A DNA stretch of 64,000 nt. Source: Cyanidioschyzon merolae. Its lineage: Eukaryota. The position numbers and the translations under genes are program-made. The stretch's first letter is position 1. The number at the start of each line of letters is the position of its first letter. This document shows, piece by piece, positions 35,031-42,865 of this stretch. The notes beneath the pieces were generated by a model. It saw nothing but the letters and a program-made list of their open reading frames with translations, was not told the DNA's origin and made no database searches. Location: assembly GCA_000091205.1 (NCBI GenBank), contig AP006485.2, one strand, 5' to 3'.

Positions 35031-35290
35031 TATCGAGTTGCTAGTTAGTGGTCAGTTTCGGTTCTCTCAGTTCGGAGACTTGGTCGAATCGATGCACCGT
35101 CAGCGCGCGCCTTCGTCGAGGCGCCGATCGCGTGTACGCGGCAGCAGCGCAGGGGCCGGCACGCTGAAGGCACCTCCGCTGTGCTGGTGGCAACGCGCAG
35201 GCCTCGTGTGCGACACGAAAGCATACGCAGCCGAGTGGCACAAACTCGCCGTGCTGTCGTGTTTATCACCAGTTTGCACTCTGGTCGTGA

Positions 35291-36346
35291 ATGGCGTACC
35301 TCGTCTTTTTTCAAAAAGCACAGCGCGGGCTCGGTGGTAGGGTCTCGGGAGTGGCCGGCCCCAGGTGCGCAGGCGACTACCGCGGCCGTACGAGCCTGCT
35401 GGTGCCTCCGGGGATGCGGTCGCGTGCACGCCCGCATGCGCACTCGCTTCTAATGAAGGCGAGGCGTCGTAGTCTGGATGAAGTGGAAAGCACGCGAGAT
35501 AGCGTTGATGGGGCACGCGAAGAACGGTCGCACGGAGGTACTCGCGCTACGGGTGCGAACGACGGCTCCGGGCATACACGGACGGGCGAGTCGCCGTCGT
35601 TGCACGCTGCTTCGGGGCAGCCTGCCGATGGCGTGGCGTTAACGCACACCGCCAGTCAACCGGCTGCTGGCACGCACACCCAAGGGGTGACCGCAGACGT
35701 GAGCGCGCCGGAGCAACGGCAACCAGGTTTGAGTCTGTCGGAAGTGCAAGAGTTCCTGGAAGTCATGCGAGAAGTAACGCTGTATTGCAGCGATGCTCGG
35801 TTGCAGATCGGCAGCACTGTAATCGAGGTGAGCCGTCCAGATGGATTCGGATTTGATGAGCATGGCGAGTTGCGCACTGCCGAGCCACACCCGAGCACAC
35901 ACCCAGGCGACAGCAGTCCTGCGTCGGCATACAGTGCGCCCGCGATGCCCCCAGACGCTGAGTCGTCAGTACTGGGTAGCAGCGCTGCGCAGGCAACGGT
36001 CTCATCATCAACAGCATCGACGTCTGCGAGAGCTGCAATAGAGCAGCGGTCGGGGAAAACGCCCGAGCCGCGTCCTCGATATGACGATGTGTCGCAGATT
36101 CTTGACACCGACTTTAAAGTGATCAGCAATCGGGTTGGAATATTTCGAGCGGGGCCGCCCTCACGTCCGCCCTACGTCAAAGTGGGAGACCGGATCGAAG
36201 TCAAACGCCCCGTGTGCATCATTGAGCAGCTGGGGAACTACTTTGTCTACAATTCCGAGGTAAGTGGGACGGTCATCAAAGTTTGCGTCGAAGACGGGGC
36301 GCCCGTCGAATACGGCAAAGAACTTGTTATCATCCGACCGGAGTAA
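35291..36346 (+). CDS. Biotinyl/lipoyl-attachment-domain protein, BCCP-like but lacking the biotinylated Lys (BADC-like); N-terminal low-complexity region, start uncertain
   Basis: The C-terminal 'AGPPSRPPYVKVGDRIEVKRPVCIIEQLGNYFVYNSEVSGTVIKVCVEDGAPVEYGKELVIIRPE' matches the BCCP fold '...VKVGD.V..GQ.VCIIEAMKLMNEIEADKSGTI..I..EDG.PV....PL..IE' with AMK replaced by QLG. Confidence 0.6.
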   Translation: MAYLVFFQKAQRGLGGRVSGVAGPRCAGDYRGRTSLLVPPGMRSRARPHAHSLLMKARRRSLDEVESTRDSVDGAREERSHGGTRATGANDGSGHTRTGESPSLHAASGQPADGVALTHTASQPAAGTHTQGVTADVSAPEQRQPGLSLSEVQEFLEVMREVTLYCSDARLQIGSTVIEVSRPDGFGFDEHGELRTAEPHPSTHPGDSSPASAYSAPAMPPDAESSVLGSSAAQATVSSSTASTSARAAIEQRSGKTPEPRPRYDDVSQILDTDFKVISNRVGIFRAGPPSRPPYVKVGDRIEVKRPVCIIEQLGNYFVYNSEVSGTVIKVCVEDGAPVEYGKELVIIRPE

Positions 36347-37130
36347 ACTGAGAGATATCCTAGGAACCCGCGGTAGAGTCATTGTACAGTCACGAGACTG
36401 GGCGATCTTCACGGCACCAGGTATACGGGCACCGGCCATGCCCTGGGTGCGCTGCAGTGGCTCGCAAAGTGTGCCTTGCCTGCAGGGCGCCTGCGTTCCC
36501 CGCAGTCTTGCGGAAATCATCGGGCACGACGTACCGCAATGAACAATACGGAGGACTGCCCGTCGCCATTTTTTGATCGGCTCTGTGAGCGTTGATCTCG
36601 TCCCGTCGTGTTGCCGCGGAAACTCAACGACACCCAAGCGCACTCGGGCCTCCAACGGATACGGGACGGTCTCAGCTAGCTATGCATTTCGCGATAGACT
36701 CGTACGTTCAGCGGCACAACGGGGCGCTTGGAGCAGGCACTCGCACCAGCTGCACGTCCATGAACATCGCGCGACCGAATGTCGACTTGTACTGCCGACT
36801 CGACAACATCCACGGCATTGCACCCCATGATTCTAAATGAATCACCATAGACGTGCTCGGTGCAGATGCTGCATACCATCCCGCACGGGTTGCTCGCAAA
36901 GCGGGCCCTCTGGTTCACGTTGTCTCTGGCGATGCGGCTATCGACCGGGTGGCGGTGGCGAATAGCGCACGACCCTCGACGCCAACGCACGCCCGGGTTC
37001 GTTCGTTCGCAATGTGAACATTGCGTCGATGCATATGCGGATGCATATGTGTGTAAAGGTGTCGATGCTCGACGGGATCAAGCTATCCGCGACTGTTCAA
37101 TCCGGATCCTCTGCCGTCCGGGAGGGTCCT

Positions 37131-38660
37131 CTACGCTTCCCCAATCGCTGGCTGCACGTAGACAAACTCCTCGACATAAGGATGCGGCAAACTTTTGTCT
37201 TGCACATCGGGACAAATTTCCGAGCTCGACGGTACACAGTCTCGCGGGCAGGTCCAGATCGCAATCGTTCCGAAATCCAAAACAGCACGCGGGTCTTCGG
37301 AACGCACTCCACGTGTCGCCGGCGTCTGAGTAGGGCACTGTTCCGCAGGTTCCAGTTCGTTTTCCGACTCCCGGCAGAGATAATAAATTAACTGCGACAT
37401 GACCTGCACTTCGAAAACTCGTGGCATGCCGCAGAGGCCACAAGGAGGCACCTGTGCGGCTTCAAGCCTCGACTTGGATCCGAACCACAGGATCTGCTGA
37501 TTCGAAATCGTAGCTAGCTTTTGCGGGTTGTTCACAGCGATCATCGCAAGACGATCATGCAAGGGCAGGTATCGAATGACTTGGTTTCGATGGCTCCCAA
37601 GCGCCTGCTCGAATGCAAGTGCATCCGACAAATCAGAACAGCGTAAGTTTTGCTCTGTCTCGATTGTTTCTATGAATGATATCCATTCTGCTGCCGAGCA
37701 TGCATGCTCTTTTGTAGGTGCAGCATCCTCTGCGTCTACGTTCACCACACGGAGTTCCGATTCTTCAACTTGGTCGTCGATGACGCCGCTGTCGTGCTCG
37801 GAGTCGCTGTCCCAGTCGACGAGAATTTCGACCGCCGGGAAGCCGAGAGAGGGCTCCTCAGAGATGGTTGCGTCCGCCCCAGATTTGTCGTATGCTGCGT
37901 GTGCTCGCCGCGAACTTGTTCCGCCTACACGCGTCTGCTCTGCTGTTTGCTGCGGAGCCACTGCAGCGGCCGCTTGAAGCGCATCAAAACTGGCGGTGTC
38001 AGCGGCAGCACCCCGGTGTGGCGACGGAGGCGGATCAAGCCCCGACAACCCCGCCGACAAGTTCGCAGGGTACCGACGCAACGCTTCCAGGTCTTCGACT
38101 TGATCTGGGTACCAGCTATTGTGCTGTGGCAGCTGCACCCTGTATACTCGAGCAGCGCCTGAATTGTCGGCGGATCGACTAGCGCACCACGCACAGATGA
38201 ACAAGTACAACACGCGATGAAACGCCGCCGCATTGTGCCCCCGGGGCGCGTACACTTGCAAAAGGAAACGAAGTTGTCGTTTGCACGAGCCGCATCGTAA
38301 TCTTTTCGTGGCTAGGCCAGCGGGGAGCGGCACCAACCAGGCCGGTGTGCCGCCCGCTCGCGACTCGAACGGTGTCCACTGTTTCGACCTGAACAGCTCC
38401 CGTTCATACACACCGTCCTCGACGCAACCCAATATAATAGAAGATTTTGAGACTTCAACGTCCATGAAGGGTTCCAAGCAGTGCATAAAGATCTCAACGC
38501 TCACGTCTAGCGCTTCTGGTGTTTTGCATTCCCCAGAGGCTTTCGCATCGGGAGTGCCAAGTGCACCCGCCAGCACGTGTTGTGCCAGCACCGGGTCGCA
38601 CCGACAGGTCCGCAGGTACATGACGATTCTCGTGCGCAACCTCTGGTGCACGACCTGCAC
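37131..38660 (-). CDS. PDCD2 / PDCD2-like (TSR4-type) protein with a long low-complexity insertion; the likely start is the Met of 'MHCLEPFMDVEV' near 38486
   Basis: N-terminal 'GGTPAWLVPLPAGLATKRLRCGSCKRQLRFLLQVYAP' matches the PDCD2 N-region. The C-terminal PDCD2_C part reads 'CGLCGMPRVFEVQVMSQLIYYL...LDFGTIAIWTCPRDC'. Confidence 0.75.
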   Translation of the reverse strand: MQVVHQRLRTRIVMYLRTCRCDPVLAQHVLAGALGTPDAKASGECKTPEALDVSVEIFMHCLEPFMDVEVSKSSIILGCVEDGVYERELFRSKQWTPFESRAGGTPAWLVPLPAGLATKRLRCGSCKRQLRFLLQVYAPRGHNAAAFHRVLYLFICAWCASRSADNSGAARVYRVQLPQHNSWYPDQVEDLEALRRYPANLSAGLSGLDPPPSPHRGAAADTASFDALQAAAAVAPQQTAEQTRVGGTSSRRAHAAYDKSGADATISEEPSLGFPAVEILVDWDSDSEHDSGVIDDQVEESELRVVNVDAEDAAPTKEHACSAAEWISFIETIETEQNLRCSDLSDALAFEQALGSHRNQVIRYLPLHDRLAMIAVNNPQKLATISNQQILWFGSKSRLEAAQVPPCGLCGMPRVFEVQVMSQLIYYLCRESENELEPAEQCPTQTPATRGVRSEDPRAVLDFGTIAIWTCPRDCVPSSSEICPDVQDKSLPHPYVEEFVYVQPAIGEA

Positions 38661-38669
38661 GCTTCAGGG

Positions 38670-41018
38670 ATGACTGCCTCTGAAGACGAACGAGCTCCGC
38701 TTGATTGGAGTCTGGACTATGTAAGGTACTTAGAAGCGAAGGAACGGATCGATGATCGAGCCATTCACTGCGAGCTCTGGGAGCGGTTTACGGGGTTCCT
38801 GCACAGCCAGCTGAGCCAAGGCCAAGCCGCAGCGACCCGACTGGAGCCGCTGCGCATCATTGACGTGGGTGCGGGTATCGGCTCGCTACTTTTTCGCTTA
38901 CTGGCAAGTTGGGAGCACGCGGAAGCGCTTGAACAAGTACGAACGTACCGTCGAGGGGTGGAATACTGGGCAGTCGACCTCAAGTCGCAGCTCCTGCGTG
39001 CACTGCTCCAGCGTCTGCAGAGCGTCGCAGCCAGCAATGAGAATCCCTGGCAATTGGAGCGCTATCATTTAGAAACGAACGTGGTGGACCACTCAAATGA
39101 CGACGAGTTGCACCAGTGCCTATCTGGTTTTGACCTCCACCGTGCCGCTGATCGCGATCAGCGACCGGCCTGCTCGCAAGCGATCCGAGCAGCTGCCACA
39201 GGTCAGGCGACTCGCGCAGAAAGCCCAGCGCCTGTAATGGACATGAAGACGCCCCTGGAACCAGGTCCAAAAACTCAACAAACAGTTGTTGTCGTTGGTG
39301 GTGGTGGTGGTGGTGGTGCTCAGAAAGCCACAGCTACTGCGGCCTCACTGGAGCATACGCGCCAGCATCGAGCCGGTGAAACTACTGGCGACGACACTAG
39401 GCACGTCGCCGAGCCACAAATCGGCCCTGGTGCGGCTTCAGTAGAAACAAGACGTTTTGAAGATAGCGACATGCCCGCCGGAACTCCAACAACGGATCCG
39501 CAAACGCATCATGCGTCGTGCCTGGGGTCAGCGAAGCTGGTACTGAAGGCATCATCGACTGGTTTCTACCTCAACGTACACTGCTATCAAGGCGATGCAG
39601 AAACTTTCTGTACGCAGCATCCCGGCACTGCAGAGGTGCTGTGGGCGTCATCTTTTTTCGATCTGCTGCTGAACGAGGCCGCCGCTGGGAGCGCATCGAA
39701 CCTGGCGTATGCGCGTTTGCGCGCCGCAATGCCCCGATTGCTGGCGACACTCAAACCCTATGGCGTATTTTATTTCCCTTTACATTACGACGGCATGACT
39801 TACTGGCTACCTAATTTTGATCCATCAAGCGCAGCGTATGAAGCAGAGCAGCAGGTGCTGGCAGCCTTTCATCGCTCGCTGAACCCCGATTGCACCGGCT
39901 TTTGTGGCCAAGCGCTCCTGGATGTTATACAAGACGCAGCGATACCTGCGCCTGCAGCATGTGATTGTACCTTTGGATACGTCACAGCGGGAGAAGTTTC
40001 TGCAGACGAACCGGCATTATCGAGTGCTGGCGTATCTCCCCAGCGTGTGCCACGAAGCACACAGCAAACCTTGGCGTCCGACTCGCTCTGCGCAATTCGT
40101 TCGGGGGCGTACGTACAGACGGCTGCTGGACAGCGCCTGGCCGGACCGCACGCGGCGATGCGACCCATGGTTACGGGCTTGGCACCCAGCACATGGTGTG
40201 TCCAGCCGTTTGCTGGGCTCGGCGTCTATTTGCCATCCACTGATGCCTATTTTCTCGAATGTATACTTAAGCTCATCGGTGGAGCTGCCTGGTCAAGCGC
40301 TTGCACCGCGTCAGAGAGGGCACGCATTGAGCGCTGGTACCAACAGCGACGCGAGCAGTTGCAGCAACGGCTGCTGACCTATGTTGCCCACAATATCGAT
40401 CTGCTAGGAATCGTCATTCCAGCGAGAATCCAGACTCGAGCGGTTGCCCGTGGCCCGGTCTTGCACTCGCCGACGGTTTGCGATTCGAGTATGGCGCCCG
40501 TACTGATGGGGATGACCGCGCGGGCCCGAGTGCCCGCCTTTGCCAAAAGTATAGAGCCAGTTGGCGTTTTCTCGTACGGAACGCTGCAATCGCCCCGCGT
40601 ACTACAAACCATTTTGGGACGCATTCCCCGATCGGTTGCCGCTGTGCTCAACGGGTATCGCGTCCACGGGGTGCGAGATGAATCATACCCAGCAGTGGCG
40701 AAATCAGCACCGGAAAATGCGCCGCACGAGGCCGTACCTGGCGTATTGCTTCTCGAGCTTACTGCAGCCGATCACGCGCTGCTGGACGCCTACGAAGGCC
40801 CACAGTACCAAAAACTGGTGGAAGAGGTCCAGATTCTGCCCCTGGGCATGAGACTCAGAGCTTTCGTGTACGTTTGGAAATCTTCCACTGATAATCTCGT
40901 TGCCTTACCGAACCAACACTGGGATTTGGATGCCTGGACGCGAACACATGAACAGAGTTTTTGCCAGGAATGCTCAGAATGGATCCGTACATTCAAGTCG
41001 GCAAATGCGGCTGAGTGA
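38670..41018 (+). CDS. Two-domain protein: N-terminal Rossmann/SAM-methyltransferase-like motif and C-terminal AIG2/gamma-glutamyl(amine) cyclotransferase-like domain, with long low-complexity inserts
   Basis: First ATG at 38670 ('MTASEDERAPLDW'). 'LRIIDVGAGIGSLLFRLL' is a methyltransferase motif-I-like stretch. The C-terminal 'GVFSYGTLQSPRVLQTILGRIPRSVAAVLNGYRVHGVRDESYPAV...VPGVLLLELTAADHALLDAYEGPQYQKLVEEV' fits the GGACT/AIG2 'YGTL...YP...V.G.L..L...LD..EG' pattern. Confidence 0.55.
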   Translation: MTASEDERAPLDWSLDYVRYLEAKERIDDRAIHCELWERFTGFLHSQLSQGQAAATRLEPLRIIDVGAGIGSLLFRLLASWEHAEALEQVRTYRRGVEYWAVDLKSQLLRALLQRLQSVAASNENPWQLERYHLETNVVDHSNDDELHQCLSGFDLHRAADRDQRPACSQAIRAAATGQATRAESPAPVMDMKTPLEPGPKTQQTVVVVGGGGGGGAQKATATAASLEHTRQHRAGETTGDDTRHVAEPQIGPGAASVETRRFEDSDMPAGTPTTDPQTHHASCLGSAKLVLKASSTGFYLNVHCYQGDAETFCTQHPGTAEVLWASSFFDLLLNEAAAGSASNLAYARLRAAMPRLLATLKPYGVFYFPLHYDGMTYWLPNFDPSSAAYEAEQQVLAAFHRSLNPDCTGFCGQALLDVIQDAAIPAPAACDCTFGYVTAGEVSADEPALSSAGVSPQRVPRSTQQTLASDSLCAIRSGAYVQTAAGQRLAGPHAAMRPMVTGLAPSTWCVQPFAGLGVYLPSTDAYFLECILKLIGGAAWSSACTASERARIERWYQQRREQLQQRLLTYVAHNIDLLGIVIPARIQTRAVARGPVLHSPTVCDSSMAPVLMGMTARARVPAFAKSIEPVGVFSYGTLQSPRVLQTILGRIPRSVAAVLNGYRVHGVRDESYPAVAKSAPENAPHEAVPGVLLLELTAADHALLDAYEGPQYQKLVEEVQILPLGMRLRAFVYVWKSSTDNLVALPNQHWDLDAWTRTHEQSFCQECSEWIRTFKSANAAE

Positions 41019-41387
41019 CGCACGCATCAACTGTGCACGCATCGCGGACACGTGTATCCCGGCGTCGAGATGCGTGCGCAGCTGATGCGTGCACTGCGTC
41101 GCACTTGCGCGGAAACCTTGCGCATTGGGGTAGCACATGTGCGACGTTTGCCGCCTCTCTCTTTCTTTCTACTTCTCTCTGTGTACGTATGTATGCGTCG
41201 GTGTGGGTACGTGTGTATGTTTGTGTGTGAATATATGAGAGGATCGCGCCCATGACGTGGCTATACGACAAAAGTCACTACTGCGACAGCTGAGGTGAGC
41301 ACACGTAGATGGCGGCGACAGTTACCTGCGCCTCAGCAGATGTGTGCGTGACTTTGCGAGGCTTGCATGTGTGCCGAGTAAGCAGTC

Positions 41388-41388
41388 T

Positions 41389-41420
<32 letters not shown>
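41388..41420. repeat. (GTC)n microsatellite, about 11 units
   Basis: Seen directly: 'gtcgtcgtcgtc...'. Confidence 0.9.
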
Positions 41421-41780
41421 TGCATTCTTGGTGCACCAAGCAGCTGCCAGCATGCATGCTCCTGCCATTCGACAACCAGGCGCGTCTTGCTGTTCGATTG
41501 CGCAGTGTTCTGGGACACGTCCGCCTTTACAAACGGTACTGCGCAAGAGGCCCGCATAGCGCGACAGCACTGCGCGCCGCTTCGTTGCTCCATCTGGTGA
41601 GCCACTGGACCAGGCACCGTTTCGATAGGGCGCGTCCAGCTAAACGGCACAACCTGCGTCCCGGCGAATACAGAGCAACCAAGACATTGGCAATCGGGCG
41701 GCATACCCAGGCCCGGCGCATGCCGCAAGACCCTGATCCCCGGCCGTGTGTTCTGGCGCGCTGAACGTACTGGACACGGG

Positions 41781-41803
41781 CAGCAGCAGCAGCAGCAGCA
41801 GCA
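41781..41803. repeat. (CAG)n microsatellite
   Basis: Seen directly. Confidence 0.9.
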
Positions 41804-41831
41804 ACTGATCTGGTACCAGCCTCGCAAAACC

Positions 41832-42656
41832 TCAGTGACGATGCGTCAGGACGACACCGAGAACGATCGCTAGGATGATCAAGATCACTAAAACGATGAT
41901 ACAGCTCGCCGCGGCCACATTCTTTTGACACATGCGTTTCTTCAAGGTTCCCGACTGCCGCTGAAACGTACCCGCCGTATTCCGGAGCGCATCGGCCTGC
42001 TCCACGAGGTCATCCAAGCGTTCGCCACGCTCCAAGACGTCTTCGATGTTGCGCTGCATCACAGCGTGAATGTCACGAACCTCGCCCTGGAGCTGGGCGA
42101 TCTTGTCCTGCCTCGTTGTGTACGTCTGGGTCAGCGCTTTGAGCGTTGGGCGAAACGCAGCGTCCAGGGCGTCCGGTTTCGTCATTCTCCGCAGGTCAGC
42201 GGGCGCATATCGCGATTCAAACTGTTCACGTACTTGCTGTAGAAAATCAAAAGCCAGTTGTCTGGGGTACCCACGCAAACACACTGCCAAGTAGATGAGG
42301 TCCTGATGAACCTGAACGTGATACCCGACGTTTCCACTGTCGTACGAGGTGCGCACATCCGTCCCAGTCGGCGTTTTATTCAAAATTCGATCCGCAATTT
42401 CCTCGAACTTTGGGCGCTCTCCCGCACCGAGACCCTCCTGGATCGCTCGACGGTCCAGGTAGGTTACCAGACGCACGGAGCTATTCCCGACAGTGACGAA
42501 GAGGATGCGTCGCGGTGCGGGGGCTGGTCGCTCCGTCTGTCCAGCACTGTCGTCGCTGCTGCGTGCCTTGCTCAAGTTTGCGTCATCACTATTCGAAACG
42601 GAGAGAGCGTTCGTCCCTTTTGAAAGGGAGGTGTTTGCCGCAGTAGTGCGCTCCAT
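41832..42656 (-). CDS. Longin-domain R-SNARE, VAMP7-like (longin plus synaptobrevin SNARE motif plus C-terminal TM)
   Basis: ATG at 42654-42656 ('MERTT...'). The longin region reads 'ILFVTVGNSSVRLVTYL...YLAVCLRGYPRQLAFDFLQQVREQFESRY'. The SNARE motif is 'LQGEVRDIHAVMQRNIEDVLERGERLDDLVEQADALRNTAGTFQRQSGTLKKRMCQKN' and the TM is 'AAASCIIVLVILIILAIVLGVVL'. Confidence 0.8.
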   Translation of the reverse strand: MERTTAANTSLSKGTNALSVSNSDDANLSKARSSDDSAGQTERPAPAPRRILFVTVGNSSVRLVTYLDRRAIQEGLGAGERPKFEEIADRILNKTPTGTDVRTSYDSGNVGYHVQVHQDLIYLAVCLRGYPRQLAFDFLQQVREQFESRYAPADLRRMTKPDALDAAFRPTLKALTQTYTTRQDKIAQLQGEVRDIHAVMQRNIEDVLERGERLDDLVEQADALRNTAGTFQRQSGTLKKRMCQKNVAAASCIIVLVILIILAIVLGVVLTHRH

Positions 42657-42865
42657 GAACTGCACACCCGTAATCCACGTTCAGGGAGGAAAGCGGACAG
42701 GCGCGTTCTGCTGTCGTTGGCATCGATCGTTTCCCCGTCGACTAGGACACGTCAGAGGTGTCGTCTCGAGTGACGTTCCCTTCGCCGCGGTCTTCCGTTA
42801 TTCGGGCACTTCTACCGAGGACGTCTGTGTTTATTGAAGGTTATTATTCATAAAACGAAAACTTC

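Follow-up and report, generated by a model that had tools for sequence, protein, structure and literature searches.

In Arabidopsis, the BADC proteins bind both the biotin carboxylase (BC) and biotin carboxyl carrier protein (BCCP) components of the heteromeric plastid acetyl-CoA carboxylase (ACCase), and also PII (PMC10440990, PMC11926652, PMC12706156, PMC7712654). Two models of their action are found in these reports: a competition with BCCP resulting in a pH-dependent, dark-favoured “poisoned complex”, or a glue or cap role stabilizing the BC-BCCP association. Chlamydomonas has a single BADC-like protein, Cre01.g037850, which is stoichiometric with the ACCase subunits (2026 paper, PMC13585458). 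The red alga Cyanidioschyzon merolae possesses a heteromeric plastid ACCase whose AccA, AccB and AccD subunits are plastid-encoded and whose AccC (CMS299C) is imported, together with a dual-targeted biotin ligase, HCS (CMC080C) (Mori et al. 2016, PMC4928187). The same authors list a nuclear gene, CMC015C, simply as “BCCP”, place it together with Cre01.g037850 in one cluster of their Gclust table, and report that its residues 1-155 fused to GFP are directed to the plastid (Suppl. Table 3, “Pt”, 155 of 351 aa). Here we analyse this gene, located at 35291..36346 (+) in a 64,000-nucleotide stretch of C. merolae contig AP006485.2 (from now on, the window), and compare its product with BCCPs and BADC proteins.

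Efforts to raise seed and algal oil target the BADC proteins, whose mode of action is disputed between an inhibitor and an assembly-factor model. The annotation and localisation of CMC015C, and the BADC family itself, are already known. In the searchable literature we found no recognition of this red-algal “BCCP” as a lysine-less protein with a BADC signature, nor of its conservation among red algae, with the proviso that Salie et al. 2016 may list algal orthologs; no paper joining BADC with red algae was found there, and CMC015C is absent from main texts. From the DNA alone, the original prediction had proposed a BADC-like protein at this position, and had linked the finding to the presence of a prokaryote-type ACCase in the host; such an enzyme is borne out by the published AccA, AccB, AccC and AccD data, and the GFP fusion is located in the plastid (PMC4928187). 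We consider it probable that CMC015C belongs to a red-algal branch of the BADC family, and that its product is nuclear-encoded, plastid-imported and active in the heteromeric ACCase, within its BC-BCCP subcomplex.

The biotinyl-like domain and its hairpin tip

The coding sequence of CMC015C (35291..36346, +) is intron-less and complete, with 351 codons followed by a TAA stop at 36344-36346. Its 351-aa product is identical to the C. merolae 10D protein BAM78962.1/XP_005535248.1, named in databases as [quoted passage not shown]. At 35291-35310 the sequence agrees exactly with the forward primer reported for CMC015C, atggcgtacctcgtcttttt, and the published length (351 aa) is the same; the gene is therefore CMC015C. 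An in-frame TGA stop (35288..35290, +), read directly from the sequence, lies immediately 5' of the ATG, so the frame is not extendable in the 5' direction and the N-terminus is fixed.

The C-terminal part of the protein (36077..36343, +; residues 263-351) is a biotinyl-like domain of the BCCP type, as delimited by Pfam, NCBIfam and PDB-sequence matches and by a structural model. Pfam Biotin_lipoyl covers residues 293-348 (E 2.4e-8, above the curated cut-off), and the top NCBIfam model is TIGR00531 (BCCP) with 59.7 bits, which does not reach the curated equivalog cut-off of 115.2. The closest sequences of solved structure are those of E. coli BCCP (1bdo, 8uxz, 4hr7; E 6.6e-7). The alignment with the latter extends over 70 residues with one single-residue gap, and CIIEQLGNY faces CIVEAMKMM; therefore, Gly315 occupies the position of the biotinyl-lysine. 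At the DNA level, 36221-36241 reads ATT GAG CAG CTG GGG AAC TAC, Gly315 being an unambiguous GGG codon (36233-36235). The hairpin-tip motif E312-Q313-L314-G315-N316 (36224..36238, +; GAG CAG CTG GGG AAC) stands in place of E-A-M-K-M, and the hairpin, VCIIEQLGNYFVYNSE, contains no lysine, the nearest ones (K305 and K330) being situated in other strands, off the hairpin tip. EQLGN is kept in 20/20 sequence variants of the CMC015C protein from genomes and metagenomes. Biotin and lipoyl ligases act on the lysine at the hairpin tip.

The thumb-equivalent segment (36146..36175, +; R286-Y295, RAGPPSRPPY) aligns with RTPSPDAKAF of E. coli BCCP with only a one-residue gap; the thumb is a hallmark of the BCCPs of ACCase (PMC11926652). 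The AlphaFold model of CMC015C, built on 32 homologs, reaches a predicted local distance difference test score (pLDDT) of ~97 over residues 271-351, and the best PDB match of its C-terminal domain in Foldseek is 1bdo (TM score 0.91, root-mean-square deviation 1.0 Å over 77 columns, that is, 77/80 residues of 1bdo superposed). Further top matches are 4hr7 and the C-terminal domain of Arabidopsis BCCP1 (9a87), and lipoyl domains appear for the first time at rank 16, with a TM score of 0.62.

Thus, the BCCP fold and the E-Q-L-G-N site (instead of E-A-M-K-M/L) claimed in the original prediction are both upheld: the former by Pfam (the very search it had suggested), TIGR00531, the E. coli alignment and the 1.0 Å superposition; the latter by the alignment and the DNA reading. 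Two ways in which that claim might have failed were considered and rejected. An error in frame or start as the cause of the lost lysine is ruled out by the upstream TGA, the clean GGG codon and the identity to the deposited protein, and neither correction restores a lysine. A lipoyl-domain identity (E2 or H-protein) is likewise ruled out, as ACCase BCCPs are the best matches in both sequence and fold, lipoyl domains follow only from fold rank 16, and the hairpin has no lysine to modify. We infer that the CMC015C protein is a biotin carrier look-alike unable to carry biotin and not biotinylated in vivo.

Upstream of this domain, residues 147-190 (35729..35860, +) form a BCCP-type N-terminal domain with a predicted helix and beta-hairpin. 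Profile-profile comparison of the red-algal N-terminal domains with bacterial BCCP N-termini (hhalign) yields a probability of 95.5% and an E-value of 1.6e-8, and the model places a helix at 149-162 and strands at 169-173 and 176-180 (pLDDT 66-79); among Pfam models, none matched this domain of CMC015C. In E. coli BCCP, the N-terminal part is in contact with biotin carboxylase and serves in oligomerisation. The CMC015C protein retains the two folded modules of bacterial-type BCCP, the N-terminal domain and the thumb-bearing C-terminal domain, and they are joined by an Ala/Pro/Ser-rich linker (35861..36076, +; residues 191-262), disordered with pLDDT <50. The N-terminal 155 codons (35291..35755, +) correspond to the GFP-directing fragment, since codon 155 is where the published reverse primer stops, if the loss of one base from its stored text is allowed for. 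Residues 1-146 consist of a basic, Ser/Arg-rich presequence (MAYLVFFQ...) followed by a disordered stretch, with pLDDT <50 at 15-110.

Identity and the proportions of nonsynonymous (pN) and synonymous (pS) differences between C. merolae CMC015C and its Cyanidiococcus ortholog show that strong purifying selection falls on exactly the two folded modules. The C-terminal domain is 89-91% identical (pN 0.06, pS 0.79, with synonymous sites saturated) and the N-terminal domain 66-68% (pN 0.16 vs pS 0.73); the linker and presequence reach only 22-32%, the linker being 22-31% identical to the orthologs and the N-terminal presequence region 31% to Cyanidiococcus. The recurrence of the rewritten hairpin throughout red algae shows that selection maintains Q-L-G for a distinct function, beyond that of a dead biotinylation site.

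Relatives and the hairpin signature

A profile made from red-algal proteins and one green homolog was searched against 5.8 billion proteins and 1.84 billion cluster representatives, and gave three kinds of sequences at the hairpin: a red type, a green type and true BCCPs. The red type has the consensus SNRVGFF...PVCIIEQLGQQYVY...VIRPD and comprises ~20 clusters at 50% identity; proteins of this signature type are carried by red algae of three classes, reading EQLGN in Cyanidiococcus and C. merolae, EQLGL in Galdieria sulphuraria and G. phlegrea, and EQLGQ in Hildenbrandia rubra. The protein of Pyropia vietnamensis (P0154, GAB0491985.1) reads EQLSA, a variant of the signature without the glycine. 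In the green type, (H/F)WPVE.PQAGE comes after EQLGT. This type occurs in chlorophytes (Chlorella, Micractinium, Dunaliella, Raphidocelis, Nannochloris; a pedinophyte reads EQLGN) and in streptophytes (Chara, Riccia, Selaginella, Diphasiastrum, Sesamum, Ipomoea), and every chlorophyte and streptophyte homolog tabulated carries the Q-[L/F]-G core. True BCCPs read E-A-M-K, a few of them with V, S or another small residue replacing A; the lysine is present at the site in 117/117 of the BCCP-type sequences retrieved, and the Q-[L/F]-G core in none.

A third search was seeded with a sequence for Arabidopsis BADC1, its matches being database proteins. They include a “Biotin/lipoyl attachment” cluster from an Arabidopsis hybrid, with 95% identity to the seed, as well as proteins bearing the name [quoted passage not shown]. 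Of the 120 angiosperm BADC1-type matches, 118 carry the Q-[L/F]-G core (of the remaining two, one reads DQFAT and one was not resolved), the most frequent hairpins being DQFGT (92), HQLGT (9) and HQLGK (8). As the same core occurs in both, the C. merolae protein is linked to the named plant BADCs. Some Brassicaceae BADC1-type proteins, such as P0317 (Raphanus) and P0326 (Brassica), read HQLGK, with a lysine one position past the glycine. Against TIGR00531, EQLG-type proteins (Arabidopsis-type BADC1, Micractinium, Galdieria, Hildenbrandia and C. merolae) obtain 48-77 bits, and the true BCCPs P0197 and P0085 obtain 164 and 172 bits. The BADC-like identity foreseen for this gene is therefore supported by a core common to plant and green-algal BADC-type proteins and by a TIGR00531 score below the cut-off. 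The accompanying description of BADCs as proteins of the green lineage needs amendment: their presence there holds, their confinement to it does not, since the family occurs throughout red algae.

Many lysine-less EQLG-type proteins (P0001-P0020, P0026, P0027, P0164, P0303 and others) are named BCCP by JGI, NCBI or UniProt. This over-annotation is systematic and would make functional BCCPs look more numerous than they are. One red-type ortholog (P0051; Logan SRR23274246, L001:2113-2889), known from a single sample, has E-Q-L-K-Q at the hairpin, an AAA codon placing lysine at the biotinylation position. In P0155, to which it is most closely related, and in ~20 other red clusters the hairpin is E-Q-L-G-Q; reversion, polymorphism or faulty assembly may account for the lysine. 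An apparently prokaryotic EQLG protein (P0079, on L002-L004, “MAG: biotin/lipoyl-containing protein [bacterium]”) was rejected as evidence of a bacterial BADC, as the contig genes are eukaryotic: they include a BUB1-type kinase, PsaK, a cyclophilin and a eukaryote-type xanthine dehydrogenase, and the contig is that of a green picoeukaryote mis-binned as bacterial. The best non-algal sequence matches of the C-terminal domain are Bacteroidota-type BCCPs, not cyanobacterial ones; P0085 is 53% identical over this domain and has SEVSGT[IV].KVCVED..PVEY in common with it, a likeness which may reflect chance retention of ancestral residues.

Origin, proposed role and rival readings

A column-by-column comparison identified derived states common to the red and green proteins and absent in BCCPs: the hairpin residues Q, L and G, an Arg/Lys that replaces Met in SP[M]VG, and a Gly that replaces the Ala next to FYR on its C-terminal side. 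Elsewhere, the red proteins keep many BCCP-like, ancestral residues. A single origin of the red and green EQLG proteins appears more likely than two, because the same changes at three adjacent sites would be improbable by drift; judging from the common E-Q-L-G site, proteins of this kind probably date back to the divergence of red and green algae. We lean, by a little, toward an E-Q-L-G carrier that arose once in the red/green common ancestor, the BADC-type subunit being an original component of the primary-plastid ACCase.

Regarding function, CMC015C most likely serves the biotin carboxylase-BCCP subcomplex as a subunit or regulator of BADC type, without catalytic activity. The protein would be synthesised in the cytosol and enter the plastid by means of its N-terminal presequence, and its N-terminal domain would dock onto biotin carboxylase. 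With E-Q-L-G-N at the tip, it would offer no lysine to biotin protein ligase and would carry no carboxybiotin; it would take up BCCP-type positions among AccC (CMS299C) and the plastid-encoded AccB (CMV134C). Binding to AccC and AccB, and the direction of the effect on ACCase, are assigned by homology.

Several observations weigh against this reading. Leaving the motif aside, the mean identity of the red C-terminal domains is 45% to bacterial BCCPs and 34% to the green BADC-type proteins. A neighbour-joining bootstrap on the 70-column domain block, from which red plastid AccB and green nuclear BCCP1/2 were absent, gives three separate clans (red 86%, green 60%, bacterial BCCP 72%), and with the motif masked the division of BCCPs from red plus green receives 19% support. 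From this three-clan topology, one origin and two are therefore not separable by the tree, and orthology with the green BADCs is argued mainly from the common derived residues; an independent origin within each lineage could be compatible with a tree of this sampling. The BCCP thumb proline, 99% conserved, is kept in C. merolae, but most of the remaining BADC-type proteins, red or green, have another residue there; the interaction surfaces may accordingly differ.

The identity values and the absence of a red-plus-green grouping in the tree would suit a convergent pseudo-BCCP, a lysine-less copy of the red algae's own making (e.g., a plastid accB duplicate moved to the nucleus) with a BADC-like action, not an ortholog of the green proteins; so would the residues past the motif, which differ between red (QQYVY) and green (T.WPVE). 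The changes from A to Q, M to L and K to G are nevertheless alike in both lineages and accompanied by two further common derived positions, three identical outcomes by unconstrained drift having a chance of ~(1/19)^3 in our rough estimate; the domain architecture is also alike in both, and the BCCP-like states of the red forms are ancestral characters, which are no argument for a separate origin. We regard convergence as unlikely. Another possibility is that the BADC-type fold serves mainly a partner other than ACCase in red algae, such as a PII sink or another plastid complex, since PII is bound by the BADCs of Arabidopsis, which also influence nitrogen metabolism (PMC12706156). In BCCP, however, the two retained domains, N-terminal and thumb-bearing, are the ones specific to ACCase; in all lineages identified the family is accompanied by a heteromeric ACCase, and the Chlamydomonas protein is stoichiometric with the ACCase subunits (PMC13585458), all of which makes this possibility quite improbable.

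Still less credit can be given to a functional carrier, with biotin on another lysine or lipoate attached as in a lipoyl domain. It would agree with the database name “acetyl-CoA carboxylase biotin carboxyl carrier protein”, with the BCCP label of Mori et al. and with the lysine of the related P0051, but it faces a hairpin devoid of lysine, the placement of K305 and K330 in other strands, a TIGR00531 score of half the cut-off and lipoyl domains ranking well below BCCPs in the fold search; we find it barely credible. The loss of the catalytic lysine and the long disordered regions might also suggest that a transferred accB gene is decaying here, as a relic without function. This is hardly conceivable for an intact open reading frame with a functional presequence, a C-terminal domain conserved at 89-91% against saturated synonymous change and a motif kept across red algal classes, in ~20 clusters at 50% identity.

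The BADC-type assignment corrects the label “BCCP” of CMC015C and its relatives, which matters for red-algal metabolic reconstructions and for counts of biotin enzymes, and the presence of a related protein throughout red algae probably places the beginnings of this regulatory layer as early as about the red/green split. C. merolae provides a single-copy, genetically tractable model for BADC function. If the single origin is true, the BADC-type subunit is not an invention of the green lineage; the only nuclear BCCP-family gene of red algae would be non-catalytic, the catalytic BCCP having stayed plastid-encoded for >1 billion years; and C. merolae, in which the BADC gene and the plastid accB are each single and gene targeting is easy, would constitute a minimal system in which to set the inhibitor against the assembly model.

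Genomic setting and comparison with known systems

The window is nuclear DNA, intron-poor, with ~55% GC and ordinary eukaryotic genes, and the GC content at third codon positions of CMC015C (0.62) is like that of adjacent genes. The window carries genes for an ABCD transporter, RPN11, PDCD2, a GGACT-domain protein and a longin SNARE, as well as for a Sec1-family protein, pyruvate kinase and ERO1. No ACCase genes are linked to CMC015C within the 64-kb window, its neighbours being ordinary nuclear genes, and neither tRNA genes (ARAGORN) nor Rfam families (at the gathering threshold) were detected across 1-64000. Gene order is common to C. merolae 35291-42665 and Cyanidiococcus yangmingshanensis L009:6001-12777 despite the saturated synonymous divergence, and comprises the BADC-like gene (+), PDCD2_C (-), the GGACT-domain protein (+) and a synaptobrevin/longin (-). 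The PDCD2-like gene (37131-38660, -) and the GGACT-domain gene (38577-41018, +) are divergently transcribed. Their mechanically derived open reading frames overlap because of upstream alternative start codons; in the called gene models of identical contigs the starts are ~50 bp apart (L005: 6331, 6380). The GGACT protein has ~800 aa, of which the N-terminal ~660 residues have no Pfam match.

Among known systems, the red-algal orthologs (Cyanidiococcus KAF6001994.1, Galdieria sulphuraria XP_005708748.1, Hildenbrandia rubra and Pyropia vietnamensis) belong to the same family, with the same architecture and an EQLG-type hairpin, from which Pyropia (EQLSA) and P0051 (EQLKQ) depart; they are annotated as hypothetical proteins or BCCP. 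Bacterial and plastid BCCP (AccB; 1bdo/4hr7; CMV134C) resemble CMC015C in having two domains, the same fold (root-mean-square deviation 1.0 Å), a thumb and a homologous N-terminal domain. They differ from it in that CMC015C has Gly for the biotinyl-lysine and Q-L for A-M, scores 59.7 bits against the cut-off of 115.2, bears a 146-residue N-terminal extension with a transit peptide and, by its sequence, would have no carboxyl-carrier capacity.

The chlorophyte proteins, namely Chlamydomonas Cre01.g037850 (formerly BCC2) and the EQLGT proteins of Chlorella, Micractinium, Dunaliella and Raphidocelis, have the same E-Q-L-G hairpin and architecture and are also single-copy in each genome; past the motif, the green T-H/F-W-P-V-E contrasts with N-Y-F-V-Y in C. 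merolae. As for Arabidopsis BADC1/2/3 (At3g56130, At1g52670, At3g15690), they are, like CMC015C, nuclear-encoded and plastid-located in an organism with heteromeric ACCase; they too combine a BCCP N-terminal domain, a disordered linker and a biotinyl-like domain scoring below the BCCP equivalog cut-off, and have lost the biotinyl-lysine within a Q-[L/F]-G core (HQLGT/DQFGT in plants, EQLGN in C. merolae). The identity between the C-terminal domains is only ~20-35%, and the red protein keeps the BCCP-like VCII, SEVSGT and thumb prolines that plants have lost. C. merolae moreover shows a single copy in place of three, and its partner BCCP is encoded in the plastid instead of the nucleus.

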